DNA of 64,000 bases from Parabacteroides distasonis (lineage in GTDB: Bacteria; Bacillota; Clostridia; Lachnospirales; Lachnospiraceae), in assembly GCA_963589425.1 (NCBI GenBank), contig CAVAKZ010000003.1, positions 10,839 through 74,838 of the forward strand, in the 5' to 3' direction. The notes under the pieces were generated by a model that saw nothing but the letters and a program-made list of their open reading frames with translations, had not been told where the DNA came from and made no database searches. The translations under genes were made by a program, and so were the position numbers. Shown piece after piece: positions 5,212 through 24,563 of this stretch. Position 1 is the first letter of the stretch; each line of letters opens with the position of its first letter.

Positions 5212-5212
5212 G

Positions 5213-5252
5213 CCATAAGCCCCTTGCCGGAGTAATCCGACAAGGGGCTTAT
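5213..5252. terminator. Strong hairpin between convergent genes (putative bidirectional terminator)
   Basis: cataagccccttg(c)cgg / ccg(a)caaggggcttatg. There is no clean T-run on either side. Confidence 0.45.
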
Positions 5253-5260
5253 GCATATCC

Positions 5261-6751
5261 TTATACAGTCCCTGCTACCCGATCGTAAAGAACCATCTCT
5301 CTACGAATCTTTCTAGCAAGAGTATCATTTATATCTTCTTTATTACATCTCCATACCCAGTTATTTCCCAAGGTAGAGGGGGTATTCATACGGCCTTCAT
5401 GGCCAAGACCCAAGAAGTCTTGCATCTGCATGATAGCGGTGTCTGCCACGCTGGCCCAGCCGCTTCGCATCAGGCCCCAGTTGTATCCCTCTTCCTTGTT
5501 CAGGCGGAAATACCGGATAGTATTCTTGGCATCTTCCGGCAAGGCGGTATCAAACCATCCAAGGATCGTCTCGTTGTCATGGGTGCCGGCATATACCACA
5601 CAGTTATGATCATATAAATGTGGTTTGTAACCTCTTCCTGTATCTCTGGAGTCAAAGGCAAATTCCAAAACCTTCATTCCCGGGAAGCCGGTTTCCTTTA
5701 ACAGCTCATAGACAGAATCCGTAAGAAAGCCAAGGTCTTCAGCAATAATAGGAAGGTCTCCCAGCTTTTCTTTTACAGCATGGAAGAAATTGATTCCGGG
5801 CCCTGGCTTCCACTGACCCCTGGCAGCAGTCTTATCTCCGTAGGGGATAGCATAGTAGGAATCAAAGCCTCGGAAATGATCAATTCGCAGTACATCATAA
5901 ATCTTCATAAGATGGGCAATTCTTGCAATCCACCAAGAGTAGCCGTCCTCTTTCATGGCCTCCCAGTTAAAGAGAGGATTCCCCCAAAGCTGTCCGTCAG
6001 CAGAAAATCCATCCGGGGGACATCCTGCAACTTCCGTGGGAATCAAATTCTCATCCAGCTGAAATTGGTCCGGGTGGGACCAGGCATCCACGCTGTCATC
6101 GGAAACATAGATGGGAAGGTCGCCTATAATCTTTATGTGATGGTCTCCGGCGAAGTCCTTTAATTTCCGCCATTGTTTAAAGAAAAGAAACTGGACAGTC
6201 TTCCAAAATACTATGTCCTCTTTTAGGGAGTCTCGAAGTATATCCAGAACCTTGCTATTTTTCACCCGAATCTCTTGGGGCCATTTAGACCAGGGGGCTC
6301 CTTGGTATTTTCTCTTAATGGCCATGAATAGGGCATAGTCATTAAGCCAATAAGCTTCCTCTTTACAGAAGCTATCAAATTCATCAGAAAACTTAGCTAA
6401 TACATTGGGTACGGTAGATGCAAGTATCGTAAATCTTTGCTTGTATTGTAGTTCGTACTCTACTTTTGTGGGGGATTCGCCCCAAGTAAGGTCTTTAAAG
6501 GTAGATTCCTCCAGTAAGCCTTCAGCTACAAGATCATCCAAGTCAATCATGTAGGGGCTTCCTGCAAAGGTAGAACAGGAAGAGTAGGGGGAATCTCCAT
6601 ATCCAAGAGGGCCTATGGGAAGAATCTGCCAATAGGTTTGCCCTGCCTTCTCCAGAAAGCAAATGAAATCTCTGGCATCCTGTCCCAAGGTTCCTATTCC
6701 ATAAGGGGATGGGAGAGAGGTGATCGGCATTAATATACCTGCGGTTCTCAT
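5261..6751 (-). CDS. malQ: 4-alpha-glucanotransferase (amylomaltase)
   Basis: N-terminus 'RTAGILMPITSLPSPYGIGTLG', 'LRIDHFRGF' and 'GTHDNET' match GH77 amylomaltases. Length is 496 aa. Confidence 0.92.
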   Translation of the reverse strand: MRTAGILMPITSLPSPYGIGTLGQDARDFICFLEKAGQTYWQILPIGPLGYGDSPYSSCSTFAGSPYMIDLDDLVAEGLLEESTFKDLTWGESPTKVEYELQYKQRFTILASTVPNVLAKFSDEFDSFCKEEAYWLNDYALFMAIKRKYQGAPWSKWPQEIRVKNSKVLDILRDSLKEDIVFWKTVQFLFFKQWRKLKDFAGDHHIKIIGDLPIYVSDDSVDAWSHPDQFQLDENLIPTEVAGCPPDGFSADGQLWGNPLFNWEAMKEDGYSWWIARIAHLMKIYDVLRIDHFRGFDSYYAIPYGDKTAARGQWKPGPGINFFHAVKEKLGDLPIIAEDLGFLTDSVYELLKETGFPGMKVLEFAFDSRDTGRGYKPHLYDHNCVVYAGTHDNETILGWFDTALPEDAKNTIRYFRLNKEEGYNWGLMRSGWASVADTAIMQMQDFLGLGHEGRMNTPSTLGNNWVWRCNKEDINDTLARKIRREMVLYDRVAGTV

Positions 6752-6784
6752 CCAAAACCCTCCTTTCTATTTGATAATATGAAG

Positions 6785-6981
6785 ATGTTTGCGAAAGGGT
6801 AGTTATTTCACGGATTGTCCACAATAACCGAAAGCAACAAAGACCCGCTTTCGCTCCGTTCCGCTGGAAGCGGTACTAAGGGGCTAAAAAACAGCCCCTT
6901 AGTACCGGCCAGCTCCAAGGGTCTTTTTTGCTTTGGTTATTGTGGATAATCTAGTGTAAGTATGTTTGGGTTCGCAAACAT
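6785..6981. repeat. About 200-bp nested palindromic intergenic element
   Basis: Outer arms are tgtttgcgaa (6786-6795) and ttcgcaaaca (6971-6980). Middle arms are 6812-6846 and 6919-6952, about 35 nt with a few mismatches. The perfect 13-bp central hairpin is ggtactaaggggc (6872-6884) with gccccttagtacc (6894-6906). Confidence 0.8.
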
Positions 6982-7009
6982 CTATAGATAATATTGAAAT
7001 TGCAAGTAG

Positions 7010-8041
7010 TTATTGTATGTGACCCGACATAGCTTTCACGCTCTCGGCAGCTACAAAGCTATAGGGTATGGTTTTGTGCAGGGCCTTGTAGGGGTAATGG
7101 ATTCTCTGCAGCATCAAGTCTACCCCCTGCTTTGCCATCTGGTCTGTATCCTGGCAGATGGTGGCCAGTCTGGGGGTTGAGAATCTGGCAAGATCTATGC
7201 CGTCATATCCTACAATGGAAATATCCTCGGGAATCTGTTTTCCCATGTCCCGAATTGCCCGCATGGCTCCAAAGGCCACAGTATCGCCCAGGGCAAAGAT
7301 AGCAGTTAGGGAAGGATCCTTTGTAAGCAGGGTTTTGGCAGCCTCATAGCCTTCTTCCATAGAATAACGACAGGGTTCAAATTGTCTTTCCAGATCAAAG
7401 GGAAGTTTGTGCTTTTTAAATCCTAAAATACAGCCATTGAGACGCTTGTAACTAATCTGGGTATCGGATCCTGTCTCCGGCTTATTACCCCCTAAAATCC
7501 CAATATGTTTGTGGCCTTGCTCTGCCAGATAGTCGATTACCGCCTCGGCGGCACCGGTATCATCTGTAGTTAAAGAAGATAGATTGTTATAGGGAAGGCT
7601 TTTGGCACTGTTTGTAAGAAGAACACAGGGAACGGAAATATGTTTAAAGTTCTTTTTAAAAAATTCCAAATCCCCTCCAAGGAAGAAGATCCCCTTGGGA
7701 TTATTCTCCCTGCAAAGACTCATGGCAAAGGCCACTTCGTCCTCATCTTCATCAATATAACTTACCACAGCTTCCTCGTCATTTTTAATGAGGCGGTGCT
7801 GGATCTGCTCCACCAAGGTCTGAAAGAGCATATTTTTATTTCCCTTTACAATAATGGCAATGGAAGAGCTGGCCCGCATTTTTAAAAACTTGGCATTGGA
7901 ATTAGGCTGAAAACCGGTTTCCTCAATAACCTTCATCACTGCTTTTCGTGTTTTATCGCTGACACCAGGATGATTATTAATGACACGGGATACAGTTCCA
8001 ATCCCATATCCTGAAAGTTTGGCTATATCTTTAATGGTCAT
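7010..8041 (-). CDS. LacI-family transcriptional regulator (probable maltodextrin locus repressor)
   Basis: N-terminal HTH 'MTIKDIAKLSGYGIGTVSRVINN' followed by a periplasmic-binding-protein-like core. It sits adjacent to the sugar ABC genes and malQ. Confidence 0.9.
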   Translation of the reverse strand: MTIKDIAKLSGYGIGTVSRVINNHPGVSDKTRKAVMKVIEETGFQPNSNAKFLKMRASSSIAIIVKGNKNMLFQTLVEQIQHRLIKNDEEAVVSYIDEDEDEVAFAMSLCRENNPKGIFFLGGDLEFFKKNFKHISVPCVLLTNSAKSLPYNNLSSLTTDDTGAAEAVIDYLAEQGHKHIGILGGNKPETGSDTQISYKRLNGCILGFKKHKLPFDLERQFEPCRYSMEEGYEAAKTLLTKDPSLTAIFALGDTVAFGAMRAIRDMGKQIPEDISIVGYDGIDLARFSTPRLATICQDTDQMAKQGVDLMLQRIHYPYKALHKTIPYSFVAAESVKAMSGHIQ

Positions 8042-8097
8042 AAGTAAATATCCTTTCTGTCTTCTTAAGTTCCGTAAAATTAGTTATCCTTGATATT

Positions 8098-8931
8098 TTA
8101 CCCTTTTACAGCACCAGCCGCAACACCTTTGATAATGTACTTCTGGCAGCTTAAGTAAAATACAATAACCGGGATGATGGCCATAATGAGGCAGGCCATA
8201 ATGGCTCCCATATCTACACGACCGTAGCTTCCCTTCATGTACTGCACCACAATGGAAATGGTTTTGTATTTCTTAATATCCAGTACAAGGTAAGGAAGAA
8301 GAAAATCGTTCCAGATCCACATAGCTTCCAAAATACCTACGGAAATATAGGTTGGCTTCATAATCGGAAGGACTACGGTGAAGAAGGTGCGAATAGGATT
8401 GCATCCGTCGATCATAGCAGCTTCTTCAATCTCCAAAGGAATGGCCTTTACAAAACCACAGAACATAAAGACAGCCAGCCCCGCACCAAATCCCAGGTAG
8501 ACAATGATAATTCCCCAAGGAGTATTAAGTCCCAAAGAATCAGCAGTTCCGGAAAGGGTAAACATTACCATCTGGAAAGGAATTACCATAGAAAATACAC
8601 AGAGAAGATAGATCATTTTTGTAATCTTATTCTGCACTCTGGTGATATACCATGCGCACATAGAGCAGCATACCAAAATAACAAGTACAGAAAGAACTGT
8701 GATAAATAATGTCCAGCCCACTGCTTTTAAAAAGTCATATTTGGTAATACTGGTCATGTAATTGTCTAATCCGGTAAAACTCTTCTCGTCAGGAAGAGAA
8801 AAAGGAGCAAGGTTAATAAAGGCTTTCTTTTTAAAAGAGTTCATCAGCACAATAATAATCGGTGCTACAAACAAAATAGAAATAATCGAAAAAAACATTG
8901 AGGCAAAAATGCCCTTTGATTTCTTGGTCAT
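8098..8931 (-). CDS. Carbohydrate ABC transporter permease (MalG-like)
   Basis: Six predicted TM segments. EAA-like loop 'EEAAMIDGCNPIRTFFTVVLP'. Confidence 0.88.
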   Translation of the reverse strand: MTKKSKGIFASMFFSIISILFVAPIIIVLMNSFKKKAFINLAPFSLPDEKSFTGLDNYMTSITKYDFLKAVGWTLFITVLSVLVILVCCSMCAWYITRVQNKITKMIYLLCVFSMVIPFQMVMFTLSGTADSLGLNTPWGIIIVYLGFGAGLAVFMFCGFVKAIPLEIEEAAMIDGCNPIRTFFTVVLPIMKPTYISVGILEAMWIWNDFLLPYLVLDIKKYKTISIVVQYMKGSYGRVDMGAIMACLIMAIIPVIVFYLSCQKYIIKGVAAGAVKG

Positions 8932-11307: not shown

Positions 11308-11465
11308 AACAACAAATTCGTGAGAAATAACAAAAATAATGCCTTGTGTTTAGGTAAATATTACAAAAACTAAGAGGGACTTGAACATGTAATGCCTTTA
11401 ATCGTATAATTTAATATAAGTAACATAGGAATATAATTAATGAAAGAGATGGGAGATTTTTGCTT

Positions 11466-12263
11466 ATGAGTGAGAAGAAAATTTGCAAGCATCCCTTGGG
11501 AAAAACTTTTTTAGCTTTTTTCTTGTATGGGATCTTGTATGTGGTGTTAGTGAATGTCAAGGGACTGTTTGAAGGGGGAAGGACCTTCCTTGGAAGCACC
11601 TATGCCTTTTCCAATATTTTTGATATTCTAATTGGAATTCTTATATTGGTCCTTTACTGGGCCTTGCATAGAAGGGATCTAAAAGATTTCTTTACGGTAA
11701 AGAAGACCGGTAAGGGACTCCTTATGGGATGGAGCCTTTTGTTTTTAGGCTTTTCTATGTGGTTTTTAAATTTTATTCAAGGAGTCCCTCAGGGAAATGT
11801 TATTGTAGCTTTGATCATGGGTATTGCCCCGGGATTTTGTGAAGAACTCCTCTTCCGCATTATCCCTATTTCAACAATCAAAAGGCTGCCTGCCAAGAAT
11901 AAAAAGAAAGCCCTCTTTATCACCTACCTAGTTTCAGGCATGGGATTTGGCTTGATTCATGCCTTTAATGTTTTAGTAGGAGCGGATCCTGTAAATACCA
12001 TAATCCAGGTTCTCTATGCCGTGGGAATTGGCTTGTTGTTTGGAGGTCTCTATCTGATTACAAGCAATCTTTGGATTACGGTTATTCTTCATTCATTTGT
12101 AGACTTTGCAAGCCTTATGACCGTCAGCGGACAGCAGACAGGAGGGGTATTAGAAGAGGCCAACAATTGGCAGAGTAATGTGCTTATTTTGATTTATACA
12201 GGCTTGATTTATATAAATGCATTTTTAGTTTGGCGAAAGATGAAAGAGGAGAAAATTTTCTAA
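11466..12263 (+). CDS. CPBP-family intramembrane glutamic endopeptidase (CAAX protease-like)
   Basis: Polytopic membrane protein with 'FCEELLFRIIP' (EExxxR motif) and 'FGLIHAFN' / 'ILHSFVDF' His motifs. Confidence 0.8.
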   Translation: MSEKKICKHPLGKTFLAFFLYGILYVVLVNVKGLFEGGRTFLGSTYAFSNIFDILIGILILVLYWALHRRDLKDFFTVKKTGKGLLMGWSLLFLGFSMWFLNFIQGVPQGNVIVALIMGIAPGFCEELLFRIIPISTIKRLPAKNKKKALFITYLVSGMGFGLIHAFNVLVGADPVNTIIQVLYAVGIGLLFGGLYLITSNLWITVILHSFVDFASLMTVSGQQTGGVLEEANNWQSNVLILIYTGLIYINAFLVWRKMKEEKIF

Positions 12264-12269: not shown

Positions 12270-12306
12270 AAAAAGGGACCCCGAGGTTTAGGCCTCGGGG
12301 TTTTTG
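12270..12306. terminator. Bidirectional rho-independent terminator
   Basis: ccccgagg (12279-12286) pairs with cctcgggg (12293-12300). An A-run lies upstream and a T-run (12301-12305) downstream. It sits between convergent genes. Confidence 0.75.
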
Positions 12307-12322: not shown

Positions 12323-15300
12323 TTAATTGATTCTTTTAAGATAGCATACGCCGGTTCTTGTATACGGTACATTTTCGTCGTCGATGAAATATTTTTTAAG
12401 ACTTTTCAGACTTAGTCTAGAAGGTTTCTGAGCTGGATGAAGCGAGTCGTGTACATAAAGAATTGTATTTCCAGGCTCAGTTGTTTTTAGATTCTCAAAT
12501 CCTAAAATAGTGATTACATGTTTGTCATTTGTTAAAGTCATTGCTGATGAGTGATTAGCTGTAAAATTCTCGCCACCAAAAGCTTCTTTAAGTTTGGAGA
12601 TAAACCAATTTTCCCACTCGAGTTTTTTATCATCTCGCTGTGCATCTTCAAAATTACTTTCCTCACAGTGATAATTTTTAACCATATCAAGATGGGAAAT
12701 TTGCTTGAAGCCTCGACGTACATTTCCTGCTTCTCCACGTCCGCTTTGGGAGTGGATAGTAGAACTATTAATATAGTCTAGGTTCAATTCAAAAGGAGCG
12801 TTTTCTACCCGGCCGGCACGAATTAGCTGGGAGGGGACTTTAATACCCTGACACGCTAGCAAATTTGATAAAGCAATGGACCAACAGATGTTGGAGTGAT
12901 TCAAATCTTGGAATTCTAGTTTCGCTAATTTAAAATGATTGTTTTCGATGCTACAAGGCATCGGTTTCTGCTTGGCATATTTATCATCAAGTGCATTAAG
13001 CTTCTCAAGTAAGGCAGCTCTGTCTTTAAGATGTTTCAATAAATAGCTATCAATTTGTTTATCTGTTTTGTTATAGTAATACTTCTGGTATAAGTTGTTT
13101 CGTTCTTCCTTAAGTATCTTTGGATCATTACACTTTAAAAGATTTACAAGCTTAACAAGAAGGACGTTTTCGGGATTATTTTCCATTGCGTCATATAATT
13201 GATGAAAGTTCACGTAATATTCGGGCATATGTTTGGCATTCGGCTTTGTGACTTTATGCTTAGAGCGTTTTATTAAGTTTTTTTGTACAGCAATAAAATC
13301 TTTTTCCATCTGTGCTGTTACCATATAAGATGTATTTCTCATTTCCTGGAAGGTGCGAGGAAGATTCCTTGTATCTAACACTATCTGCCCATTTTTTTTG
13401 GAACTTTGTTGGATTGAGGATTTTGCTCTACTTTCATTGATCTGATTATTATTTGCTTTTTGCAAGCGAGTATATTCTGCATCTGTCTTCTCTTTTGAAT
13501 TTTTTGCTAGTTTGTTCACTCTTTCTTCTTGTTTTAGCTCTTTTTGCAATTTTTCTATGTCAGCATTAACATCCGAATGGTCTTCATTCTCGGACTTGTA
13601 CTTTATAAAGACATCTCCAACAGTTGAATTCTTGGAGGCTTGGTTTTCTCTTTGGTTGTTTTCCTCTTCTTTATCATTTTCTATCTCTAACTGCTTTATT
13701 TGTTCATCCATTTCTGGATCATTGTTCTCATCCACTATTGTTTTGTCTTGCACTGGTTCTACATTTTTCTCTTCTTGTTTTTCCTTGGCCTCCTTCTTGT
13801 TTTCTTCTAGTATAAGGTCATTCAGTTCTTCGTTGATGTCATTTTCATAGTTTATATTTTCATAGTTTATATTTTCGACTTTTACTTCTTCTTTTTTTGC
13901 TGACTCTTGTACCGATGCTTTTTTTATTGCTTCTGAAATTTTTTCATCAGTTACCTCCACTAAAGAACCGGAATTATCTATTTCCTGCATTAGAAGATCG
14001 GTGTCTGCAGTTACCGTAGCTTTTGTGGTTTTCTTCTTAAAGAGTCTAGAAAGCCATGCTGCAATAGTAGTGATGAAACCAGTCTTTTTTGCTTGAATTT
14101 TGAGTGGTTTTAGTTCTTTTGTAGAAGCTAGATCAAGCTTGTCTACAGATTGTAAACTACTATGTCTTTCCACAATATCTTCTTCTTGTATCTTATTGAG
14201 TTGCTTGCTGATCTGTTGATTCAGGATACTTTGAGCCTTTCTTTCTTGTATTTTCTGTCTTTCTTTTTCTTCAGAGACAGCTTCTTCCACCAGAACCTTC
14301 TCACGGTATTCTTTTTCATCAGGATAAAATCTGAGAGTTCCGGACTGAAATTCGCCCATGGTTTTTGCCTTGGGAATTTCGTCTTTTATCTCATCTTTTA
14401 TCTCATCTTTTATCTCATCTTTTATCTCATCCTTTACCTGCTGTTCAGATTCTTTCTGTTCTGCCTGCAAAGCTTTTACAATCACAGGATAAGAAGCGAA
14501 GGCGCTTGTAAGTGCCTCGGCCTTTGCCAGGCCATCTACTTGATCTTTCTTCATAATCGCATCAGAAAGGCTTATGAAATGTTCTAAATTCTCGGGCTTC
14601 TCTATAACTGTAGCAGCATATGGAGAGGTGAGAACTTCAGAGATGAGATTGTATATTTCCGCATTCTCATCCTCAGCATCAACCGGGAAGTTTGTAAGGA
14701 ATTTTTTTAGGTTGTCAATAAGATTCTGACAGTTCTCTGCGGCAATTTTTCCTTCTTTATCCTTCGTTGATACTTCTTTTCTTAAACTTTCTATTTGTTC
14801 TGACAGAGTCTGGCTAACTTCCTCTTTTTCTTTTTGTGCGACTTCTGCCGGATATTTTTTGTACCAGTTTTCTAAAATCGGAAGAGAAGTATCTAATTCC
14901 TGAGAAATTTCATCTAAGCTAGTGTAATACTTATCCTTTTGAAGATTTTGATTTTCCAAGATGTAGAGAGCATGGTCTAAGGTAATCAGATAGGAAAGCT
15001 CATCAAATTGTTCCTTTTCAAATGTAGCTGAGGTGTTTGTCATTAAAGCGTCGAAGGCTTTGGGGTCGCAAACAATTTTTTTGATAACAGAATATAGATT
15101 GTTGTATTTTTCTAATTTTTTACTATGGAATCCGCTATAGGCTTCTGTTTGTATGCGAAGATAATCCTGTGTGTGTCCGCTATCATTTAATAGCAGTATG
15201 CCAGGCTCTTCTAAAACCTGAGCAGCCTGTTTTGCTTCTTCCTTCTTTTTTGTAATATAAGTCTTCCAGTAATATTCGGACAGATTTTCTGCTAGATTTT

Positions 15301-16795
15301 CCCCGGTGTTTTCTTTGGAAATAGCAGAGTCAGGCACTAGATAGGTGATGGCTTTCATAAAGATGTCCAATCCGGTGGAAGAATTTTTGTTTAGGAAATG
15401 ATCGTAGGCAAAGGGGTCAGCTGCGATTGTTTCTACATTGCTCCTTATATTACTCTTGACAGAGGCCAAACGAGGTTCTTCTTTGTCGACTTTTTCCTCG
15501 GGCTGATTTTTGCAAATTTCAGCGGCAACGTTTAATATGTTCTTTAAATTTTTGAAAAGAAATTGTTCTTTATCCTTTTCGGAAAGGTTTGTGTATTCCT
15601 TATAGAGCTGGATAAATTTGGTGTTGACTGCAAGGTCTTTTTCTTGCTCTTTTTCTTGGTTTCCTTCCTTTTTTAAACTATTCTCAGCCTTTGCATCCTC
15701 TTTTTTTAAGGCTTCCGAGAATTTGTCTTGAAAACTTTTCTTAAGCTCTGTCTTAGCTGAAAGCTCTGTCAGGAGTCGATTGGTTTCTTTCTTTTGGGCT
15801 TGTAGGAAGGTATATTCTTCTAAGTGCAGTATCCTCAAATCCTTTCCATCCGTGGCCTTGAAAAGGGTTATCTTGTTAATTGCTATATCCATCTGGTTTA
15901 GGATTTGGCTATAGTAGATCATCTGGAGAAGCTTGGGATGATTCTCCTGGGCATATTGCAGGGCTTCCTGACTGGCAGCCATTCCTGTGACTAGTTTGAA
16001 AATATAGCTGCTAACGCTGCCCTTAAAGAAAAACTTATCTTTTAAATCTGAAATATGCTGGGAGGAGAGGCTACCATTTCCTTCTTGAAAGTAATTTAAT
16101 TGCCCCTGAAGCTGCTTGAACCGTTTTTGGGCAGACATTGCCTCTTGGACATCCCTAAGTTTTTTTTCTAGTTCCGGAAGGGAGGGATCCTTCCGTCCTT
16201 TTTCTTTTTTATTTTTCTTGTCTTTTTTGACTTTTAGGTTCGCGATCTGGGCAGTCAGGTCATTCTCCATTTGCATAAGATCTTGGCTGGGGTCTTGAGC
16301 TTGATCAGTCTTGAAAAAGTGCCCGTTTTTTGCCATGGAGGAGAAGGCTTCATAGAAATTTTCCACTGGTATCTTTTCCTTCTCGCCTTGCTTATTATTC
16401 TCCATCTGAGGCTCTTGAAGCTCTTCTTCCGGAAGATTTTCGTATAGTATTTGATCAGACTCTTCCCTTATTCTTTGGGACACCTGGTCAAGGTTAAAAG
16501 TTTCCCATTTGGCCTTTGTCTTTTTATAAAGGCTACCGTAGTTAGGCATTCCGGTAAGAAATCTGCCTAAAGCCTTGAAAGATTTTTTGAATTTGGAGGC
16601 AGACTCTAACTGCTCCGGAGTTTCTCCCTTTTTTTCAGCAGTTTTATAATAATACTGCATTTTTTCCTGATCATGGGCGTAAGTGTCCATAATGGAGTCT
16701 CCCCGAAGCTTCTGCTCTTTATCTTGCTTGAGGGAGATGTAAGGAGACTTTATTTGTTGAGCTTTTTTTTGTACTTGTTCATCTGGTCCTGGCAT
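12323..16795 (-). CDS. 1490-aa Lys/Glu/Gln-rich, largely low-complexity or coiled-coil protein with a C-terminal papain-like (Cys-His-Asp) thiol hydrolase-like domain
   Basis: Uninterrupted 4.47-kb ORF with SD aggagg 6 nt upstream. No signal peptide. C-terminal ~220 aa carries 'NHSNICWSIALSNLL' (Cys codon 12884-12886), 'DKHVITILGFE' (His codon 12518-12520) and 'ILYVHDS'. This resembles the papain CW / H-x-V-x-x-x-G-[YF] layout. Confidence 0.6.
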   Translation of the reverse strand: MPGPDEQVQKKAQQIKSPYISLKQDKEQKLRGDSIMDTYAHDQEKMQYYYKTAEKKGETPEQLESASKFKKSFKALGRFLTGMPNYGSLYKKTKAKWETFNLDQVSQRIREESDQILYENLPEEELQEPQMENNKQGEKEKIPVENFYEAFSSMAKNGHFFKTDQAQDPSQDLMQMENDLTAQIANLKVKKDKKNKKEKGRKDPSLPELEKKLRDVQEAMSAQKRFKQLQGQLNYFQEGNGSLSSQHISDLKDKFFFKGSVSSYIFKLVTGMAASQEALQYAQENHPKLLQMIYYSQILNQMDIAINKITLFKATDGKDLRILHLEEYTFLQAQKKETNRLLTELSAKTELKKSFQDKFSEALKKEDAKAENSLKKEGNQEKEQEKDLAVNTKFIQLYKEYTNLSEKDKEQFLFKNLKNILNVAAEICKNQPEEKVDKEEPRLASVKSNIRSNVETIAADPFAYDHFLNKNSSTGLDIFMKAITYLVPDSAISKENTGENLAENLSEYYWKTYITKKKEEAKQAAQVLEEPGILLLNDSGHTQDYLRIQTEAYSGFHSKKLEKYNNLYSVIKKIVCDPKAFDALMTNTSATFEKEQFDELSYLITLDHALYILENQNLQKDKYYTSLDEISQELDTSLPILENWYKKYPAEVAQKEKEEVSQTLSEQIESLRKEVSTKDKEGKIAAENCQNLIDNLKKFLTNFPVDAEDENAEIYNLISEVLTSPYAATVIEKPENLEHFISLSDAIMKKDQVDGLAKAEALTSAFASYPVIVKALQAEQKESEQQVKDEIKDEIKDEIKDEIKDEIPKAKTMGEFQSGTLRFYPDEKEYREKVLVEEAVSEEKERQKIQERKAQSILNQQISKQLNKIQEEDIVERHSSLQSVDKLDLASTKELKPLKIQAKKTGFITTIAAWLSRLFKKKTTKATVTADTDLLMQEIDNSGSLVEVTDEKISEAIKKASVQESAKKEEVKVENINYENINYENDINEELNDLILEENKKEAKEKQEEKNVEPVQDKTIVDENNDPEMDEQIKQLEIENDKEEENNQRENQASKNSTVGDVFIKYKSENEDHSDVNADIEKLQKELKQEERVNKLAKNSKEKTDAEYTRLQKANNNQINESRAKSSIQQSSKKNGQIVLDTRNLPRTFQEMRNTSYMVTAQMEKDFIAVQKNLIKRSKHKVTKPNAKHMPEYYVNFHQLYDAMENNPENVLLVKLVNLLKCNDPKILKEERNNLYQKYYYNKTDKQIDSYLLKHLKDRAALLEKLNALDDKYAKQKPMPCSIENNHFKLAKLEFQDLNHSNICWSIALSNLLACQGIKVPSQLIRAGRVENAPFELNLDYINSSTIHSQSGRGEAGNVRRGFKQISHLDMVKNYHCEESNFEDAQRDDKKLEWENWFISKLKEAFGGENFTANHSSAMTLTNDKHVITILGFENLKTTEPGNTILYVHDSLHPAQKPSRLSLKSLKKYFIDDENVPYTRTGVCYLKRIN
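13841..13876. repeat. In-frame 15-bp tandem repeat, about 2.4 copies
   Basis: attttcatagtttat occurs twice perfectly plus a partial copy. It encodes 'NINYENINYEN' in the large protein. Confidence 0.9.
14382..14441. repeat. In-frame 12-bp tandem repeat, 4 perfect and 1 degenerate copy
   Basis: tcttttatctca x4 encodes '(DEIK)n' in the large protein. Confidence 0.95.
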
Positions 16796-16804: not shown

Positions 16805-17683
16805 CTAAATATTGCTTGTAACGTTGGACTGCAAATTTTTCCATCCGGTGGTGATGCCGGCGTTTGTAATGTTGTGGTCCGGAAGAAGGGCTTTTGCTGC
16901 CTTTAACATGGAATCAAGACCACAGGTAAATTCGATTCGATTCAGAGTTTCCCTTCCGGTTAATAGCTGATCGGAGACTGTTTTCATAAGTCGGATCAGG
17001 GCTTTTAGATAATTTTTTTCTATAAAACAAAGTTCCAGGGAATAGATACCTTCCCCTACGCGGTCTACTAAGATGGCTCCTACGATCTGAGAATTAGAGA
17101 CTAAAAGCCTGCTTAAGCTAGGATCCGCAGAGGCATAGTCGGCCCGGCTGGCCACATAGTTGTGATGGCGCTCCCGGTTCTTTATGAAGTACTCTAACTG
17201 CCTGGATTTTGCATATCTAAGAGAAACAATGCTGTCATCGGAGGAAATTTTGGGACCAAGAATTTCAGGCTGGCTGTAGAAGAGGGCTTGCTTTAGCTGG
17301 TCTCTGCTTACAGAGAAAACAGGCTCTACATGGAAATCAATAAAGAAACCTCGGCGCCCTAGCATAGCCATAAGTCTTCTTTCCTGGTCGGTCTCTCCGC
17401 CTAATGCCACCTCCAGATTTTGGGTGCCATTTTTCTTTGCTTCTAAAATAGCTTTGTCAAGAAGCCGGCTTCCAATTCCTTGTTCTTGATATTCCGGAAG
17501 GACGTAAATCCAAGTAAGCCCCCAATTTTTATCTTTTTTCATCAGAATTACGATGCCTACAGCCTCTTCCTCTATCAAACAGGATAGAACAATGCTAGCT
17601 GTGCGAAGACCATGGATGGGGGCCATATTCCTTACCTTAAAATATTCTGATTCTGTAATTTTTCTTATCTTAAATTGATCCAT
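16805..17683 (-). CDS. GNAT-like N-acetyltransferase domain protein with an uncharacterised C-terminal half
   Basis: 'IYVLPEYQEQGIGSRLLDKAILEAKKNG' fits the acetyl-CoA-binding Q/R-x-x-G-x-G/A motif of GNATs. Its stop overlaps the SD of the downstream 1490-aa gene. Confidence 0.6.
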   Translation of the reverse strand: MDQFKIRKITESEYFKVRNMAPIHGLRTASIVLSCLIEEEAVGIVILMKKDKNWGLTWIYVLPEYQEQGIGSRLLDKAILEAKKNGTQNLEVALGGETDQERRLMAMLGRRGFFIDFHVEPVFSVSRDQLKQALFYSQPEILGPKISSDDSIVSLRYAKSRQLEYFIKNRERHHNYVASRADYASADPSLSRLLVSNSQIVGAILVDRVGEGIYSLELCFIEKNYLKALIRLMKTVSDQLLTGRETLNRIEFTCGLDSMLKAAKALLPDHNITNAGITTGWKNLQSNVTSNI

Positions 17684-17737
17684 ATTTAAAATTCCTCATT
17701 GTTTTATACGATGATAATTACATGTCGGTTAACTTGG

Positions 17738-17746
17738 ATTGTAACA
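17738..17746 (-). promoter_or_regulatory. Candidate extended -10 promoter element for the GNAT/large-protein operon
   Basis: The minus strand reads tgttacaat (TGnTAnAAT type) about 55 nt upstream of the GNAT start codon. Confidence 0.35.
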
Positions 17747-17773
17747 TGTTTTTTTACTTTTAAGATGCAAAAT

Positions 17774-17802
17774 TTGCCATCTTTTTTGGATTTTGATACA
17801 AT
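17774..17802 (+). promoter_or_regulatory. Candidate sigma-A promoter for the jetABC-like operon
   Basis: TTGCCA, 17-nt spacer, TACAAT, located 43 nt upstream of the ATG at 17845. Confidence 0.45.
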
Positions 17803-17844
17803 TCACTGTGCGAAACACGTAAATTAGCTGATTTTGGGGAACTT

Positions 17845-19281
17845 ATGAAATTAATCGATCAAATTCCAAAAAAATTTTATAAATTATTTGCAAGTAAATA
17901 TATGGACTACTACCAGCAGTTTCTGGTAGACCTTTATGCGGCTTCAGGAAGGTCTTATTCTCTTTTGGGCTTGACAGAAGCGGAGTGCAAGGCTGTGATG
18001 AATGAGCGGATTGCTGAGACCACCCTGGATTGGGACCAGGAGGCCTACGATGAGGAAGGGGACCTCCTTACCAAAGCCAACATGGCGTCGGTCTGTTTAA
18101 AACACTTAGAGGATTGGGGCTGGCTTAAGCAGGATTATGATGAGTCTTTAAATAGCTATGTGGTATCCTTTCCTGAGTACAGCAGGCAGTTTGTAGAACT
18201 TTTTCGAGAGCTTAGGCTGGAAGATCAAAACAAAGAGCGGGAGAGTATTCTTGCCATTTATAGTTACCTTCATACCTACCACACGGACAAGGAAAAGAAT
18301 GTGGAGATCCTGAGAAGTACCTGGTCCATGTCTAAGGGGCTTTTGCAGCAGTTAGCCGGTATGCAGGAAAGCATGCGGGGATATTTTGATGAGCTGTCTA
18401 AGCAGAAAAGTTTTCTTGGAGTGCAAAAGGTTCTGGTAGAGGAGCTTAATAATACGGATAGCAAGAAATATGCCATTCTTACCACCACAGACAGTTTCTA
18501 TCGCTACAAGGAGGCGGTGAAAGAACTGGTATCTGAGATTCGTATAGAAAATGAAGAGCGCTATGAGGAGCTGTTAGGTAAGAAGGAAGTCTATGAGGCG
18601 TCTAAGAAAGATACTATGGATGCAGCAGAGGAGTATTTGTTTCAGTTAAAGGCTCCCTACTACCGCATGGAAAGGAGTCTTAAAAGGGCCAAGGAGGCCT
18701 CAGAGCTTTTGCTTCGCATCGACCGGGAGTTTGACGCCATTGAGCGAAGATATAATATGCTGATTGAGCAAAAGACTGTATTTGCCGGTCGGGCAGCAGC
18801 TAGAATCCGCTATCTTCTGTCAGAGGGAAATGTGGAAGAAGACCAGACAGTAAGCCTTATAAATCTCATAAACAAAAGCCGGAGAAAAGAAGAAATTTTA
18901 GAAAAACTTGGGGAGAAAATAAGCCTTACCCAAAGGTTTAAATTCTTATCAGAAAAAAGCCTTTATAAGAAGAGAAATACAGACAGGGAGGCCTTTGCAC
19001 CGGAGGCAGTAAGCCTAGAGGAAAAAGAGGAAGCCTTGGACGGCTTTGTATTAAAGCCCCTGTATACCAGGCAGGAGCTTGAAGAGTTTAGAAAGAAAAA
19101 TGAGCAGGATGGAGCTTTCCAGGTGACAGAGGATACGGTAAGGTCTATGGAAGATTTGGAAAAATTATTTTTTGTCTGGCAGGAAGCTACGGAAGTGGCA
19201 GACAGTGAAAATGAAATTGAGATTGGAAAAGACTATGAGAACGCAGAAGGCTTCCGCTTTTCTAAGCTTGTGATTCGATAA
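17845..19281 (+). CDS. jetA: JetA/MksF-like (kleisin-like) subunit of a Wadjet/MksBEF-type SMC complex
   Basis: 478 aa, first gene of a three-gene cassette whose order and sizes (about 480/210/1120 aa) fit jetA-jetB-jetC. Predicted mostly helical. The call is made from context, not from a recognised motif. Confidence 0.5.
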   Translation: MKLIDQIPKKFYKLFASKYMDYYQQFLVDLYAASGRSYSLLGLTEAECKAVMNERIAETTLDWDQEAYDEEGDLLTKANMASVCLKHLEDWGWLKQDYDESLNSYVVSFPEYSRQFVELFRELRLEDQNKERESILAIYSYLHTYHTDKEKNVEILRSTWSMSKGLLQQLAGMQESMRGYFDELSKQKSFLGVQKVLVEELNNTDSKKYAILTTTDSFYRYKEAVKELVSEIRIENEERYEELLGKKEVYEASKKDTMDAAEEYLFQLKAPYYRMERSLKRAKEASELLLRIDREFDAIERRYNMLIEQKTVFAGRAAARIRYLLSEGNVEEDQTVSLINLINKSRRKEEILEKLGEKISLTQRFKFLSEKSLYKKRNTDREAFAPEAVSLEEKEEALDGFVLKPLYTRQELEEFRKKNEQDGAFQVTEDTVRSMEDLEKLFFVWQEATEVADSENEIEIGKDYENAEGFRFSKLVIR

Positions 19282-19300
19282 ACAAGAAGCATAAATAAAA

Positions 19301-19372
19301 GGCGTAATAGATGTGTAGATGGAAGCGTAGATAGATGTGTATATAGATACGTAGATAGAAGCATATGTAAAT
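19301..19372. repeat. Degenerate 12-nt tandem repeat (about 6 units) in the jetA-jetB spacer
   Basis: Units are gcgtaatagatg, tgtagatggaag, cgtagatagatg, tgtatatagata, cgtagatagaag and catatgtaaatg. Consensus is YGTAGATAGAWG. Confidence 0.85.
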
Positions 19373-19393
19373 GCGTAAAAAAGGAGCATATAT

Positions 19394-20026
19394 ATGATGG
19401 AATATATAGAAAGTTTGTCCTTATCTGAGGCAGACAATCTGAAAAAAACCATAGGACGGTTATTTAGGCAAACCTGCATTTTGCAAATGCGCTATGATCC
19501 TGAGACCTTAATTCCCAAGGATAATCCGGACTATGAAACCTGTGTGAGGCATAAGGAGTTTATAGAAGATTACCTGTCCGTACTAGGTTGTGAACTGATC
19601 CATGATCCTCAGGAGCATATTTTTCTCCTAAAAGGGGAGGGAGTGGAACTTGAAAAACTAAGTCTTACCACCACCATTATTTTATTGATCGTAAGAATTC
19701 TTTATAGGGATAAAATTCTTGGGGCAGGGCTGGAGGCCACGGTTACCAATCTGAAAGAAATTAGAAGTTATGGAAGAAATACTGGCCTGCTAAATCGAAA
19801 ACTAACTACAGCAGAGTGGAGAGATGCCCTCTATCTAATGAATCGTCACCAGATTATTGAAGTGCCTGGAGCCGTTAAGGATGTGGAGGATGAGACCCCC
19901 ATTTACCTTTATAGCACCATTAATCTGTATATTAGAAATTCGGACATTGGGGAGCTTATAGAGGAGTATAAGGAGGATGCGGTAAATGAGACAATCGAAG
20001 AAAGTCTTTACCCGGATGGTGATTAA
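19394..20026 (+). CDS. jetB: JetB/MksE-like (DUF4194-like) subunit
   Basis: 210 aa. 'FIEDYLSVLGCELIHDPQEHIFLLKGEG' resembles the conserved DUF4194 segment (x-Y-F-x-x-x-G-L-E-L-x-x-D-x-x-x-G-x-x-F-L). It is followed by a hydrophobic helix and overlaps the next gene by 41 nt. Confidence 0.6.
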   Translation: MMEYIESLSLSEADNLKKTIGRLFRQTCILQMRYDPETLIPKDNPDYETCVRHKEFIEDYLSVLGCELIHDPQEHIFLLKGEGVELEKLSLTTTIILLIVRILYRDKILGAGLEATVTNLKEIRSYGRNTGLLNRKLTTAEWRDALYLMNRHQIIEVPGAVKDVEDETPIYLYSTINLYIRNSDIGELIEEYKEDAVNETIEESLYPDGD

Positions 20027-23000
20027 TAACTGGGGAGGAATTAGTCATAAGCTCATGGAATTTCATGAGTACGTGAACCTTTTCAGTGGCAAGAGTGGTT
20101 CGGGAAAGTCCACGGTTATGGATGCCTTGCAGGTGGTTTTGTATGGAAGTACCAAGGCCACCTTTTTAAATAAAGCGGCAGATGATGCCAAGAACAGACG
20201 AAGCGTCTTTAGTTATCTTAGGGGAGCCCAGAAGGATGGCAGTGCCAACCGTCAGGGCATGGACTTTTGTTCCCAACTGGTCCTGGAAATTTGGGATACA
20301 GGAAGTGACACCTATACCTGTATCGGAGTCACCTTTCAGGTAGGAAAGCAGGACAGGGAACTTTCCGATGCCAAATATTCTTTCTTTAGCCACTCCGGAA
20401 AGATCCCGGAAGATGAATATCTAGATGTTAACGGAAGACCATATACTCTGGCAAACATCCAAAAGCTTATTAAAGAGCGGGGAAATTCTCTGGATAATAA
20501 AGGTCGGGGCGAGGTGAACAAGGTCTATCTTACCAACAGAGATTACCTGGGCACTCTCTATGAGCTGGTCTTAGGTCATATGGATCCCGGCCGCTTTATC
20601 ACTATGGAAAAAAGTGCGATTGCTCTTCGCATGAGCAACGGTACCGGTCAGTTTATTAAAGATTACATGTTTCCAAGAAGCAAGGAAGATACCGTCTCTA
20701 CCATCAGTGATCAGTTGGGAGCCTACCGGGAGATTAAGGAGAAGGTGGAAGATTTAGAGCACAGAATCGACCTTCTTTCGGAGGTAAAGCTTGAAAACCA
20801 AGCCCTTATGGAAGCCCAGGCAGACAAGCTTCGGACAGAAGCCCTTCTGCGGATTCTTGATATAGAAGGAACTAAGGCAAGGCTTGCAAGTAAGAAGGGG
20901 CAGAGAGAAAGCATTTTGGATAAGATTGCAGAACTGGAAAAAAAGCAGGAAATTTTGGACCAGGAGAAAAATGCTAAATCTGAGGACCTGATCGAGGTGA
21001 AGGCGGAACTGCAATCCAGTGATTTTGGTGCTAAGAAAAAGGAATTGGAAAATTTAGAGCGCACCATTTCCCAGGCCAAGATTAATGCCGGCCAGTGGAA
21101 GGAGATTTTGGAAGGCCTTGAAAAATGGACCACTGATGAGGAGATAGGCGGCTATATAAGCAATCCAACTCTTCAGGCTATGGAAGATTTGCTTGAGGGC
21201 CAGGTTACAGAAGAAGCTATTGATAAAATTAAAAAAGGCCTTGCCCTTGCCATGGAAAGTATTGAGGAAGAACTTTCGGATTTAGGAGTAAATATTCGGG
21301 AAAAGACCAAAGACTTAAAGGAAAAGAAGGAGATGGTGGAAGATCTAAAAAACGATCGAAAGCCATACAAAAAAGAATTAAAAAGCGCCAGGGTAGAGCT
21401 TCAAAGAGAGCTGTCTAACCGCTATGGCCGCAGCATACCGGTGCACATTTTTGGAGATCTTTTTGATATTACCGATGAGAAGTGGAAGAATGCCATTGAG
21501 GGGCGATTAGGAAGATTAAAGCATAGTCTTATTACAGAACCTAGATATGCCTTAGATGCAGCAGGGGTCTTTCGCTCTATGAAGCGGCGGGAGTATGAAG
21601 AAATTGACCTTATTAACACGGCGGCTATTTTAAGAGAACAGCCAGAGGCTAATGAAGGGACTCTTTATGAGGCGGTAAGCACCAAGGAAGCCTATGTGGA
21701 CCAGTGCCTAAAACGTTATCTTGGAAGAATAAAAAAATGCGACAGCATAGAGGACCTTCATGAGGTCAGGGAAGGCGTTACCGCAGATTGTTATTCCTAC
21801 AGTAATTATATTTTCAGGCACCTAAGGGAAGTGGATTATACCCGTTATGCCTGCATTGGCACCAGGGTTTCCAGGGGAAAGCTTCAGGAAGTAGAAGACG
21901 AGATTATGGACCTTGAGACTAGCCTTCTTTCGGACAACCAAGGCAAAGCCCTTTTAAGCGGTGCAAAAAAAATGGAACAGCTACGGCAAAGCACCAAGAC
22001 TCTCTTGGAACTGGCATCTGCATCAGAGTCTCTGGATGAATACTTAAAGCAGGAGGAAAAAATCAAGGCAGAGATAAAAGAACTCCAGGAGGGAGTAAGA
22101 ACCAAAGAGCTTCATAAGAAGCGGGAAAAATTAGAAGGAGAGCTTTCCCGTCTTGGAGGAGACATAAATAAAGTGCAGAGAAGCCTAGTTAGGGAATCTG
22201 AAAATAAGGGTCGGGTGGAAAAAGAAGAAAGAGAATTAAAGGATCGCCTAGCCTACCTAAAGGAAGGTCAGGCAGAAAATCCAGAGCTTCAAAAAGAAGT
22301 GGAAGAGAGCCTAAAAAATCTTAATGAACAGACCTACCGAGCTGGGTTAAACAAAAAACTGGAGACCCTATCTAAGAAGGAAGAGACTGCCTTAGAAAAA
22401 CGAAACACAGCCAGAATTCATTTTAACAATGAATACCCAAGTTACGGTTACAGCGGCTTAGAGCATGATAACGTCAGATATGATAAGCTCCTTTCCCAGT
22501 ATCAAAAAGACTTTGAGCCCCAGTATAAGGAGGAGTTTGAAAAGCAATATAAGCTGGTCTATCACTCTCTTAGGGAAAATGTCATTGCCACTATTCACGG
22601 GGAGATTAAGGCAGCCTACCGCCATAGAAAAGAAATTAATCGGATGCTGTCGAAAATTCGATTCTCCGACAGTACCTATCAGATTGATATTTTGCCGGCA
22701 GAAAATGAAAACGGCCAGTTCTACGACATGTTAATGGCGGAGGAGTTAGACAGTAAGGTCTTGGACGATGATGGATTTGAAGGCCAGCTTAGTTTAGGAG
22801 AAGATCTTTTCTATCAAAAATATGAAAAACAGATTGGTCTTTTAACAGAAAAATTCATGCCTCCAAGGGAGGAAGATGGAGAGAGACGAAGGCTCCACAA
22901 AGAAGAAATGGAGAAATATGCGGACTATCGAAATTATTTGACCTTCAGCATGTATGAGCGGGTGGAAGATGAATTTGGAAATGTAAAGAAAAATTCTGTA

Positions 23001-23345
23001 GACGATATGGCAGGCAGAGATTCCGGAGGAGAGGGACAAAATCCAAAATACGTGGCCCTATTGGCAGGCTTTGCCATGTTATACATGAACCAGGGCAGTG
23101 GAGATTCCAAGATCCGACTAGTGCTTTTAGATGAAGCCTTTTCTAAAATGGACAAGGAGCGAAGTGAGGTGTGTCTAAGATATGCCAGAGAATTGGACTT
23201 GCAGCTTATTGTATGTGTGCCGGATGAGCGTTTGCAATCCTTGATTCGAAATGTCGACAGTGTCTATGGATTCCGCCGTCATAAGAACCAGATTTCCATG
23301 ATGCATATTGACAAGGGCAGCTATCTGGAGATGATGGAGGGATAA
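19986..23345 (+). CDS. jetC: JetC/MksB-like SMC-family ATPase
   Basis: N-terminal 'VINNWGG...LFSGKSGSGKSTVMDAL' (P-loop head). About 700 aa of K/E/L-rich coiled coil with a central non-coil hinge-like segment. C-terminal 'SGGEGQ' signature-like motif and 'LVLLDEAFSKMD' Walker B. SD aggagg lies 7 nt upstream of ATG 19986. Confidence 0.75.
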   Translation: MRQSKKVFTRMVINNWGGISHKLMEFHEYVNLFSGKSGSGKSTVMDALQVVLYGSTKATFLNKAADDAKNRRSVFSYLRGAQKDGSANRQGMDFCSQLVLEIWDTGSDTYTCIGVTFQVGKQDRELSDAKYSFFSHSGKIPEDEYLDVNGRPYTLANIQKLIKERGNSLDNKGRGEVNKVYLTNRDYLGTLYELVLGHMDPGRFITMEKSAIALRMSNGTGQFIKDYMFPRSKEDTVSTISDQLGAYREIKEKVEDLEHRIDLLSEVKLENQALMEAQADKLRTEALLRILDIEGTKARLASKKGQRESILDKIAELEKKQEILDQEKNAKSEDLIEVKAELQSSDFGAKKKELENLERTISQAKINAGQWKEILEGLEKWTTDEEIGGYISNPTLQAMEDLLEGQVTEEAIDKIKKGLALAMESIEEELSDLGVNIREKTKDLKEKKEMVEDLKNDRKPYKKELKSARVELQRELSNRYGRSIPVHIFGDLFDITDEKWKNAIEGRLGRLKHSLITEPRYALDAAGVFRSMKRREYEEIDLINTAAILREQPEANEGTLYEAVSTKEAYVDQCLKRYLGRIKKCDSIEDLHEVREGVTADCYSYSNYIFRHLREVDYTRYACIGTRVSRGKLQEVEDEIMDLETSLLSDNQGKALLSGAKKMEQLRQSTKTLLELASASESLDEYLKQEEKIKAEIKELQEGVRTKELHKKREKLEGELSRLGGDINKVQRSLVRESENKGRVEKEERELKDRLAYLKEGQAENPELQKEVEESLKNLNEQTYRAGLNKKLETLSKKEETALEKRNTARIHFNNEYPSYGYSGLEHDNVRYDKLLSQYQKDFEPQYKEEFEKQYKLVYHSLRENVIATIHGEIKAAYRHRKEINRMLSKIRFSDSTYQIDILPAENENGQFYDMLMAEELDSKVLDDDGFEGQLSLGEDLFYQKYEKQIGLLTEKFMPPREEDGERRRLHKEEMEKYADYRNYLTFSMYERVEDEFGNVKKNSVDDMAGRDSGGEGQNPKYVALLAGFAMLYMNQGSGDSKIRLVLLDEAFSKMDKERSEVCLRYARELDLQLIVCVPDERLQSLIRNVDSVYGFRRHKNQISMMHIDKGSYLEMMEG

Positions 23346-23435: not shown

Positions 23436-23471
23436 GGAGATAGTTGAATGAACAAAGCAAGGAGGTATCCC

Positions 23472-24504: not shown

Positions 24505-24563
24505 TTAAATTGTTTTGGAAGCTTAAATGTTTTATAAGAAAAACCACAAAAAGGAGAACTTAT

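Follow-up and report, generated by a model that had tools for sequence, protein, structure and literature searches.

The stretch of Lachnospiraceae chromosome analyzed here, a window of 64,000 nucleotides (contig CAVAKZ010000003.1 of assembly GCA_963589425.1), carries a two-gene operon that pairs a GNAT-family protein with a giant protein of 1,490 amino acids, the C terminus of which is predicted to adopt a papain-like fold with a conserved Cys-His-Asp triad. The two genes form a cassette of deeply diverged alleles at a fixed chromosomal position. The explanation that we put first, and hold tentatively, is that the operon is a clade-specific conflict module maintained as a balanced polymorphism and equipped with an active cysteine hydrolase, which may act against phages or mobile elements or in antagonism or recognition between strains.

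The giant gene occupies positions 12323 to 16795 of the minus strand and starts with an ATG codon, as read from the sequence and the listing of open reading frames (ORFs). The Shine-Dalgarno sequence AGGAGG lies 6 nucleotides upstream of this codon, and a gap of 9 nucleotides separates the giant ORF from the stop codon of the GNAT gene (positions 16805 to 17683, minus strand, 292 amino acids). The original prediction, made from the DNA letters without database searches, had described an uninterrupted ORF of 4.47 kb with a perfect Shine-Dalgarno sequence, coupled to an upstream GNAT-like gene. Both statements hold, and a GNAT gene is present at every homologous giant locus found, in a constant chromosomal slot.

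Allele classes and selection

Homologous loci (designated L001 to L013 where they need to be told apart) were compared with the window. By flank identity, L002 and L009/L010 belong to the same species as the window, with 96 to 100% identity in the flanking proteins and approximately 96 to 98% in the flanking DNA. Against this background, the window and L002 share only 66% identity in the GNAT protein and 48% in the giant protein; L009 has an allele of the window type (97% and 90%, respectively). The divergent block is sharply bounded. DNA identity between the window and L002 changes from approximately 96 to 98% to 50 to 70% exactly at the stop codon of the giant gene, being above 95% from this codon onward on the terminator side, and recovers about 10 nucleotides upstream of the GNAT start codon. 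Synonymous divergence (dS) between the same two loci is 1.54 for the GNAT gene and 1.73 for the giant gene, compared with 0.09 to 0.23 in nine flanking genes. This excess indicates that the cassette alleles are much older than the surrounding genome, beyond what a fast drift of amino acids would produce.

The relationships among alleles conflict with those of the flanks. The GNAT protein of L002 is nearer to those of L005 and L006 (74%) than to that of the window (66%), which belongs to the same species, and the window GNAT is nearest to that of L011 (81%), though the genome of L011 is more distant. Within the giant gene, a patch at positions 13595 to 13793 (amino acids 1001 to 1067, in the charged linker) retains approximately 90% DNA identity to the L002 allele, whereas the rest of the gene is at 50 to 70%, which points to recombination between allele classes within the linker. 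In L005 and L006, the N-terminal 480 amino acids of the giant protein are near-identical and the remainder differs, including an insertion or deletion of about 250 amino acids.

The ratio of nonsynonymous to synonymous substitution rates (dN/dS) of the giant gene is 0.79 between the window and L009 and 1.95 between L007 and L001 (P = 0.002), with values of 0.02 to 0.19 for the neighboring genes and the GNAT gene. In the helical bundle that directly precedes the catalytic core (amino acids 1137 to 1290), L007 and L001 are separated by 44 nonsynonymous versus 2 synonymous changes (dN/dS of 5.9, P = 0.003). The comparison of the window with L009 gives a dN/dS of 2.1 in the linker, and in the catalytic core it gives 16 nonsynonymous and no synonymous changes (P = 0.02).

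Dedicated mechanisms of diversification were also considered. L007 and L001 differ by 179 substitutions, which affect all bases (A>G 42, C>A 29, and G>A 26 among them), and because this spectrum is not adenine specific, the giant gene is unlikely to be the target of a diversity-generating retroelement; no reverse transcriptase is present among the window annotations. A paralogue or silent cassette as the source of variation was rejected, as the search for repeat copies, internal or external, came up empty. An ORF of 844 amino acids at positions 50407 to 52941, to which Pfam assigns no family at E ≤ 1e-5, shows no relationship to the giant protein (BLASTP E value of 3).

The C-terminal papain-fold domain

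The original prediction had placed a papain-like domain in the last ~220 amino acids of the giant protein, described as compositionally normal. The charged fraction of this region is 0.23 to 0.24, against 0.28 to 0.46 elsewhere in the protein, the drop extending over the last ~200 amino acids. The three motifs on which the proposal relied (NICWSIALSNLL, DKHVITILGFE, and VHDS) are all present, and the minus-strand codons of the putative nucleophile Cys1304 (positions 12884 to 12886), of His1426 (12518 to 12520), and of Asp1450 (12446 to 12448) lie where it had put them. All three residues are invariant among homologues, being unchanged in six to seven alleles that share 40 to 59% overall identity. 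Gln1296 (positions 12908 to 12910, minus strand), a candidate oxyanion residue, and Asn1302 are also invariant and precede Cys1304 by 8 and 2 residues, as counted along the sequence.

An AlphaFold2 model of amino acids 1137 to 1490 (mean predicted local distance difference test [pLDDT] score of 79.8 and predicted template modeling [TM] score of 0.81) has a papain-like placement of these residues. Cys1304 (model residue 168) opens a helix formed by model residues 168 to 178, His1426 (model residue 290) stands directly before the strand 291 to 298, and Asp1450 (model residue 314) ends the next strand (309 to 314). In a Foldseek search of the PDB, every credible match was a clan CA protein, the best being UfSP from Caenorhabditis elegans (5ejj_B; E value of 0.023, probability of 0.97), followed by UfSP2 (3oqc_B; E value of 0.068), Alr0975 (2bu3_A; E values of 0.1 to 0.26, TM-score of 0.56 by target length), the C39 domain of PCAT1, and OspI. 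A structural search of BFVD returned one credible match, a Gordonia phage endolysin (probability of 0.99, TM-score of 0.50). At the sequence level, five of eight alleles align with positions ~3 to 142 of the 143-position profile of Peptidase_C39_2 (PF13529), with E values of 0.017 to 0.08 and 13.9 to 16.1 bits; none of the eight reaches the gathering threshold of 24 bits, and the window allele gives no match.

The comparison with individual families shows both likenesses and differences. Peptidase_C39_2 and C39-like domains, including the N-terminal peptidase domains of actinophage LysA, have the same order of Cys, His, and Asp, with the histidine opening a strand in the pattern H-hydrophobic-x-hydrophobic-x-G and the aspartate on the next strand. 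In the giant protein, however, Cys and His are 122 residues apart with an inserted helical subdomain, and the domain ends a helical protein of 1,300 amino acids that has neither a signal peptide nor a cell-wall-binding domain. Peptidase_C39 (PF03412) gave no Pfam match, the giant protein is not fused to a transporter, and an hhalign comparison with the C39 domain of the window's own PCAT-type transporter aligned only the His motif (probability of 0.1). UfSP1 and UfSP2 (MEROPS C78) likewise combine a papain fold with an extra N-terminal domain before the core, but they carry an Asp-Pro-His box that is absent here: two residues ahead of His1426, the alleles vary among D, N, G, and S, and there is no proline. 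The third triad residue lies 24 residues past the histidine, like that of papain and C39. The operon contains no Ufm1-like or ubiquitin-like gene. The phytochelatin-synthase-like family (MEROPS C83) has a Cys-His-Asp triad with spacings of about 110 and 18 residues, similar to those of the giant core. Its member Alr0975 is approximately 10% identical to that core, the Phytochelatin family of Pfam has no match in the giant protein, and the locus has no link to glutathione metabolism.

The model, the motif geometry, and consistent, if weak, structural matches support a clan CA-like papain fold for the last ~200 amino acids, in which the Cys-His-Asp triad is conserved, and the clan CA layout of the original prediction stands in this respect. 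Membership in a named clan CA family is not supported: none of those that had been suggested (papain C1, YopT, OTU/UCH, CHAP, and transglutaminase) can be assigned, and the nearest relatives are C39-like, UfSP, and phytochelatin-synthase-like proteins at weak scores. The catalytic fold is of a known kind, within which the domain forms a very divergent branch. The domain is presumably catalytically active.

Restriction to one clade

An exhaustive HMMER search with the last 308 amino acids over 1.84 billion cluster representatives returned six matches, consisting of five large proteins (1,279 to 1,778 amino acids, 46 to 58% identical in this region) and one fragment, whereas a word-indexed homologue search with the same query returned none. 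Exact look-up retrieved about eight giant-protein sequences in 15 billion proteins, with the window's own protein absent from the record. The GNAT partner is represented by seven clusters in 5.8 billion proteins, all of 285 to 292 amino acids and all at the jetA locus. When 185,579 species genomes were scanned with an alignment of giant proteins, one metagenome-assembled genome (MAG) was positive; a scan with the whole giant protein alone found none. The JGI metagenomes gave no match either to the giant-protein alignment or to an invariant 34-mer from the promoter region.

Relatives of JetA, encoded next to the cassette, place the clade in the Lachnospiraceae, with Blautia obeum, Dorea, and Bariatricus as the nearest named organisms at 61 to 63% identity. 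In sister lineages (JetA 65 to 70% identical), the cassette is missing beside jetA, and unrelated genes are found there instead. The GNAT-giant pair is thus confined to one uncultured clade of the Lachnospiraceae. No match to the cassette was found in IMG/VR or in phage and plasmid records, so that a phage- or plasmid-borne origin was rejected. The codon usage of the cassette is that of its neighbors, and a foreign origin by composition was rejected as well.

The GNAT partner

The GNAT partner consists of an N-terminal GNAT domain (amino acids ~30 to 118) and a conserved C-terminal half of 170 amino acids without a match. The Pfam family Acetyltransf_1 is matched with an E value of 1e-10 and 42.4 bits (cutoff of 20.7 bits), and the acetyl coenzyme A motif is kept in six alleles, as QEQGIGS or, in one of them, as REQGAGN. 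The closest solved relative is RimI, with an E value of 1.3e-4 over the cofactor-binding core only (amino acids 38 to 90). Between allele classes, the C-terminal half is more alike (71%) than the GNAT half (64%). This protein may act in the same pathway as the giant protein, with which it is co-inherited. Neither the giant protein, its C-terminal domain, nor the GNAT protein has a match in PADLOC-DB v2 at an E value of ≤1.

Possible roles of the operon

The active site is intact, the allele classes are ancient and occupy a fixed locus, alleles are mosaic, dN/dS exceeds 1 in folded regions beside the active site, codon usage is native, and the pair is restricted to one clade. Together, these features argue for antagonistic coevolution or balancing selection acting on a protein with catalytic activity. 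Under the conflict reading, the giant protein would be cytoplasmic and possibly membrane peripheral, built from an array of helical bundles, a charged linker, a further bundle, and a divergent C39-like or papain-fold hydrolase with Cys1304, His1426, and Asp1450 as its catalytic residues. The helical regions beside the active site may recognize a fast-evolving partner, such as a factor of a phage, a mobile element, or another strain, and the Cys-His-Asp domain could cleave a peptide- or isopeptide-type bond or act as an acyl or peptidyl transferase. The GNAT protein inherited with it might modify the giant protein or modify or neutralize its substrate. Deeply diverged allele classes would be kept within and across the species of the clade, recombining as mosaics, with recurrent amino acid replacement around a constant active site.

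The cassette resembles hypervariable bacterial loci (capsule, O-antigen, type I restriction-modification specificity, and kin discrimination) in its fixed slot, conserved flanks, allele classes that far predate the surrounding genome (with an approximately 10-fold higher dS), flank-discordant phylogeny, and sharp boundaries. It differs from them in content, as none combines a GNAT protein with a giant papain-fold protein, and no described counterpart was found in the literature for a hypervariable cassette in which a papain-fold hydrolase on a giant helical scaffold is paired with a GNAT protein of two domains. A more specific version of the conflict reading, which we regard as somewhat unlikely, is that the operon represents an undescribed type of conflict or self/non-self system, with trans-species allele classes under balancing selection, a huge helical sensor that would direct a C39-like hydrolase at a fast-evolving factor of phages, mobile elements, or rival strains, and an allele-matched GNAT protein that would gate or neutralize it.

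Several points weigh against a conflict role. The dN/dS values are pairwise Nei-Gojobori counts on three close pairs rather than estimates from a phylogenetic site model, and part of the fast evolution is that of a charged linker under low constraint. The codivergence of GNAT and giant proteins between allele classes has a Spearman coefficient of 0.08 and is statistically unresolvable because of saturation. No structural match has an E value below 1e-3 and no sequence-family threshold is reached, so that the fold assignment draws on consistent but weak matches and on motif geometry; the placement of the triad in the model is known at the level of secondary structure. The related genomes consist entirely of MAGs and metagenome contigs, in which strains and species are assigned by flank identity only. 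There is no PADLOC or other defense-family match, and neither a target nor an immunity gene nor a secretion apparatus came to light. The "defense island" context is weak, since the neighboring JetABC genes lack JetD and are conserved across the Lachnospiraceae.

The giant protein could instead be an effector that leaves the cell without a Sec signal, through lysis, holin-type release, export resembling type VII secretion, or deposition on the spore surface, with the hydrolase attacking the cell wall of competitors or molecules of the host and with diversification driven by competitor immunity or host recognition. We consider this unlikely. Several large Firmicute toxins also lack a signal peptide, a phage endolysin peptidase is among the structural neighbors, as are C39-like peptidases with peptidoglycan or Gly-Gly sites as their targets, and the allelic diversification is strong. 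Like polymorphic toxin and LXG systems, the operon encodes a large protein that lacks a Sec signal and ends in an enzymatic domain, diversifies strongly with mosaic recombination, and includes a tightly linked second gene. Those systems, however, have a trafficking domain and a swapped C terminus, whereas the giant protein has no LXG/WXG or other trafficking domain, no export genes adjoin the operon, and conservation within the protein is highest in the C-terminal core (32% of positions invariant), where a toxin would have its variable tip. Their immunity protein is a small downstream product; here the partner is an enzyme encoded upstream, and since a terminator closes the operon and the next gene is convergent, there is no downstream immunity gene. 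The convergent gene encodes a CPBP/Rce1-like protein, of a family often tied to bacteriocin self-immunity, but it lies outside the divergent block and is 98% identical where the cassette is at 48 to 66%.

Less likely still is a lineage-specific structural or housekeeping scaffold, for example, a cytoskeletal protein associated with the membrane or a protein associated with the chromosome, encoded next to the MksBEF-like JetABC, in which a weakly constrained charged helix drifts and the cysteine domain performs routine processing. The fixed place beside jetABC in every genome, the unusually conserved shared promoter region, the all-alpha, Lys/Glu-rich architecture, the native codon usage, and the amphipathic basic helix at amino acids 68 to 85 would all fit such a scaffold. 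Relaxed constraint, however, can neither lift dS about 10-fold over the flanks within one species nor leave a well-folded GNAT protein at 66% identity where its neighbors are at 96 to 100%, and dN/dS exceeds 1 in confidently folded domains. The cassette is also absent from sister lineages that keep jetABC, showing that it is not part of the jetABC machinery.

Improbable to the same degree is that the C-terminal domain is a papain-fold transferase or amidase (for example, a gamma-glutamyl or acyl transferase of the phytochelatin synthase or BtrH kind) or, on the pattern of OspI, a glutamine deamidase, which would work with the GNAT protein as a two-enzyme pathway of small-molecule or protein modification scaffolded by the giant protein. 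The best TM-score belongs to the phytochelatin-synthase-like acyl-enzyme Alr0975 (0.56), OspI is among the matches, and the tight translational coupling to an acetyl coenzyme A-dependent enzyme suggests consecutive chemistry. The fold matches are nevertheless too weak for choosing between hydrolase and transferase, no biosynthetic genes are nearby, and extreme allelic diversification is atypical of metabolic enzymes. That the gene is an artifact of fusion or frameshift or a pseudogene in decay, as the split homologue of L008 (ORFs of 169 and 1,506 amino acids) might suggest, can practically be dismissed, as at least nine independent alleles of 1,278 to 1,778 amino acids are intact despite saturated dS, 242 residues are invariant, the triad included, the operon has its own Shine-Dalgarno sequence, promoter, and terminator, and a neighboring gene of L008 is split too, pointing to assembly errors.

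Should the conflict reading be correct, the operon would be an orphan enzyme system of an uncultured clade of gut commensals with an evolutionary behavior normally confined to immunity, toxin, or recognition loci, including allele classes that predate the species, abrupt recombination boundaries, and dN/dS above 1 around an active site that stays intact. It would represent a new architecture of conflict system, in which a giant helical scaffold is combined with a papain-fold hydrolase and a GNAT protein, and a concrete strain-level marker for the population genetics of the Lachnospiraceae. Even a set of about 10 sequences among 15 billion is thus enough to delineate a new and well-folded branch of the clan CA fold; in practice, work on it is limited by a host known from metagenomes alone.

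Architecture of the giant protein

Lysine and glutamate make up 24% of the giant protein. Neither the full protein nor its C-terminal domain matched a family in Pfam, NCBIfam, or PADLOC, and phmmer and profile searches of PDB sequences returned chance matches only (proteasome subunit, GMP synthase, and prefoldin). The absence of a secretion signal, already noted from the sequence, is borne out: there is no hydrophobic N-terminal region, the best 19-residue Kyte-Doolittle mean (1.17, at the helix of the catalytic cysteine) is under the transmembrane range, and seven N-terminal regions of giant alleles match no LXG/WXG or any other Pfam family at an E value of ≤10. The giant protein is presumed to be cytoplasmic.

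The first 159 amino acids (positions 16319 to 16795; all features of the protein lie on the minus strand) begin with an invariant M-P-x-P motif and are modeled with pLDDT values below 50, with 25% of positions invariant. They contain an amphipathic basic helix (KFKKSFKALGRFLTGMPN, amino acids 68 to 85, positions 16541 to 16594), the hydrophobic moment of which (0.59) is at the 99.8th percentile of the 18-mers of the protein. Amino acids 160 to 800 (positions 14396 to 16318) form an all-alpha array of helical bundles, with 116 invariant positions among seven divergent alleles and pLDDT values of 80 to 88 over amino acids ~390 to 800. A helical module of about 70 amino acids within this array (amino acids 684 to 755, positions 14531 to 14746) is present in one copy here and in two to three copies in longer alleles. 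The model of the first 800 amino acids was built from five sequences, leaving out alleles L009, L011, and L012. Because its Foldseek matches are nonspecific helical ones, the highest being alpha-catenin/vinculin at a probability of ≤0.18, no function can be assigned to this part.

A variable charged linker follows at amino acids 801 to 1136 (positions 13388 to 14395), with no invariant positions and an alignment occupancy of 0.54 to 0.88. It holds the internal tandem repeats that had been pointed out, which exist but are tiny: 4.6 copies of a 12-nucleotide unit (DEIK five times, positions 14382 to 14436) and 2.4 copies of a 15-nucleotide unit (NINYE twice, positions 13841 to 13876). The linker also carries a lysine-flanked hydrophobic segment (KKTGFITTIAAWLSRLFKK, amino acids 903 to 921, positions 14033 to 14089) found in four of nine alleles. 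The original prediction had regarded about 1,250 amino acids as low-complexity or coiled-coil sequence. This is right for the linker but only partly so for the whole, since amino acids ~160 to 800 fold as conserved helical bundles (~640 amino acids); the conservation of amino acids 1 to 159 also speaks against it.

The helical bundle just before the catalytic core (amino acids 1137 to 1290, positions 12926 to 13387) is modeled with pLDDT values of 80 to 96, carries the motifs LPRTF, PEYY, and LLVKLxNLLKCND, and is a hot spot of amino acid replacement between strains that are nearly identical. The catalytic core itself spans amino acids 1291 to 1455 (positions 12431 to 12925). The C-terminal tail (amino acids 1456 to 1490, positions 12326 to 12430) is variable except for the final strand, with Thr1481, Tyr1485, and Leu1486. 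Differences in allele length come mainly from one to three copies of the 70-amino-acid helical module and from insertions and deletions in the linker. Apart from L008 (GCA_963630295.1, positions 1 to 8218), homologues are full-length single ORFs, and a fusion or frameshift, the artifact against which the earlier proposal had to be checked, is not borne out. In L008, the Rce1-like neighbor is split as well (107 and 130 amino acids), which suggests assembly indel errors rather than pseudogenization.

Operon signals and gene order

Downstream of the giant stop codon, an intrinsic terminator at positions 12278 to 12301 (minus strand) has a hairpin stem of 9 bp, with seven GC pairs, followed by a T-run. 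At the other end, positions 17684 to 17844 contain the divergent promoter and 5′ untranslated region common to jetA (plus strand) and the GNAT-giant operon (minus strand), with an extended −10 element (TGTTACAAT) and a GAGGA ribosome-binding site for the GNAT gene. This intergenic region of 160 bp has a mean column identity of 92% over seven loci from several species, exceeding that of the adjoining coding DNA (~80%), and includes an invariant block of about 50 nucleotides (ACGTGTT.CGCACAGTGAATTGTATCAAAATCCAAAAAAGAT). Neither an Rfam match nor a significant RNA fold was obtained for it, on which grounds a riboswitch or structured 5′ untranslated region was rejected. The region may serve as the operator through which a conserved regulator controls one or both of the divergent operons.

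The gene order is the same in every recovered locus (L001 to L013): the AIM24-family gene, a small ORF, the ParA-like gene, jetC, jetB, and jetA are followed, across the divergent promoter, by the GNAT gene, the giant gene, and the convergent Rce1-like gene and then by a sugar ABC operon, LacI, and GH77. The remaining window is ordinary core chromosome, with MetRS, an Asp/Asn-type tRNA synthetase, ProRS, a Mur ligase, PGI, and GlmS among its genes.

Neighboring genes

The Wadjet-type jetA, jetB, and jetC genes (positions 17845 to 23345) are not followed by JetD. In all loci of the clade, a ParA-like ATPase gene, a small ORF, and an AIM24-family gene (positions 23448 to 25247) are located there instead. 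The sister lineage L016 (JetA 65% identical) has a JetD_C gene after jetC, which indicates that the JetD nuclease subunit has apparently been lost or replaced in the clade. The convergent Rce1-like/CPBP membrane protease (positions 11460 to 12263) shows 62 to 82% amino acid identity between species, compared with 92 to 98% for the adjacent ABC transporter proteins.

Positions 25608 to 30998 look like a bacteriocin or peptide export module, composed of a gene for an extracytoplasmic function-type sigma factor (positions 25608 to 26120), an ORF of 161 amino acids without a Pfam match, and two tandem PCAT-type ABC transporters of 725 amino acids, of which only the first has a recognizable C39 peptidase domain. 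In L006 (GCA_963658535.1), a surface-type protein of 2,680 amino acids with SHIRT, MBG_2, and YDG-like domains (19437 to 19837) is located just past GH77, a position at which the window does not have it. A protein of 553 amino acids encoded at positions 3550 to 5211, with predicted AAA-ATPase_like and PD-(D/E)XK nuclease (PDDEXK_9) domains, is found at the same position in most related loci.

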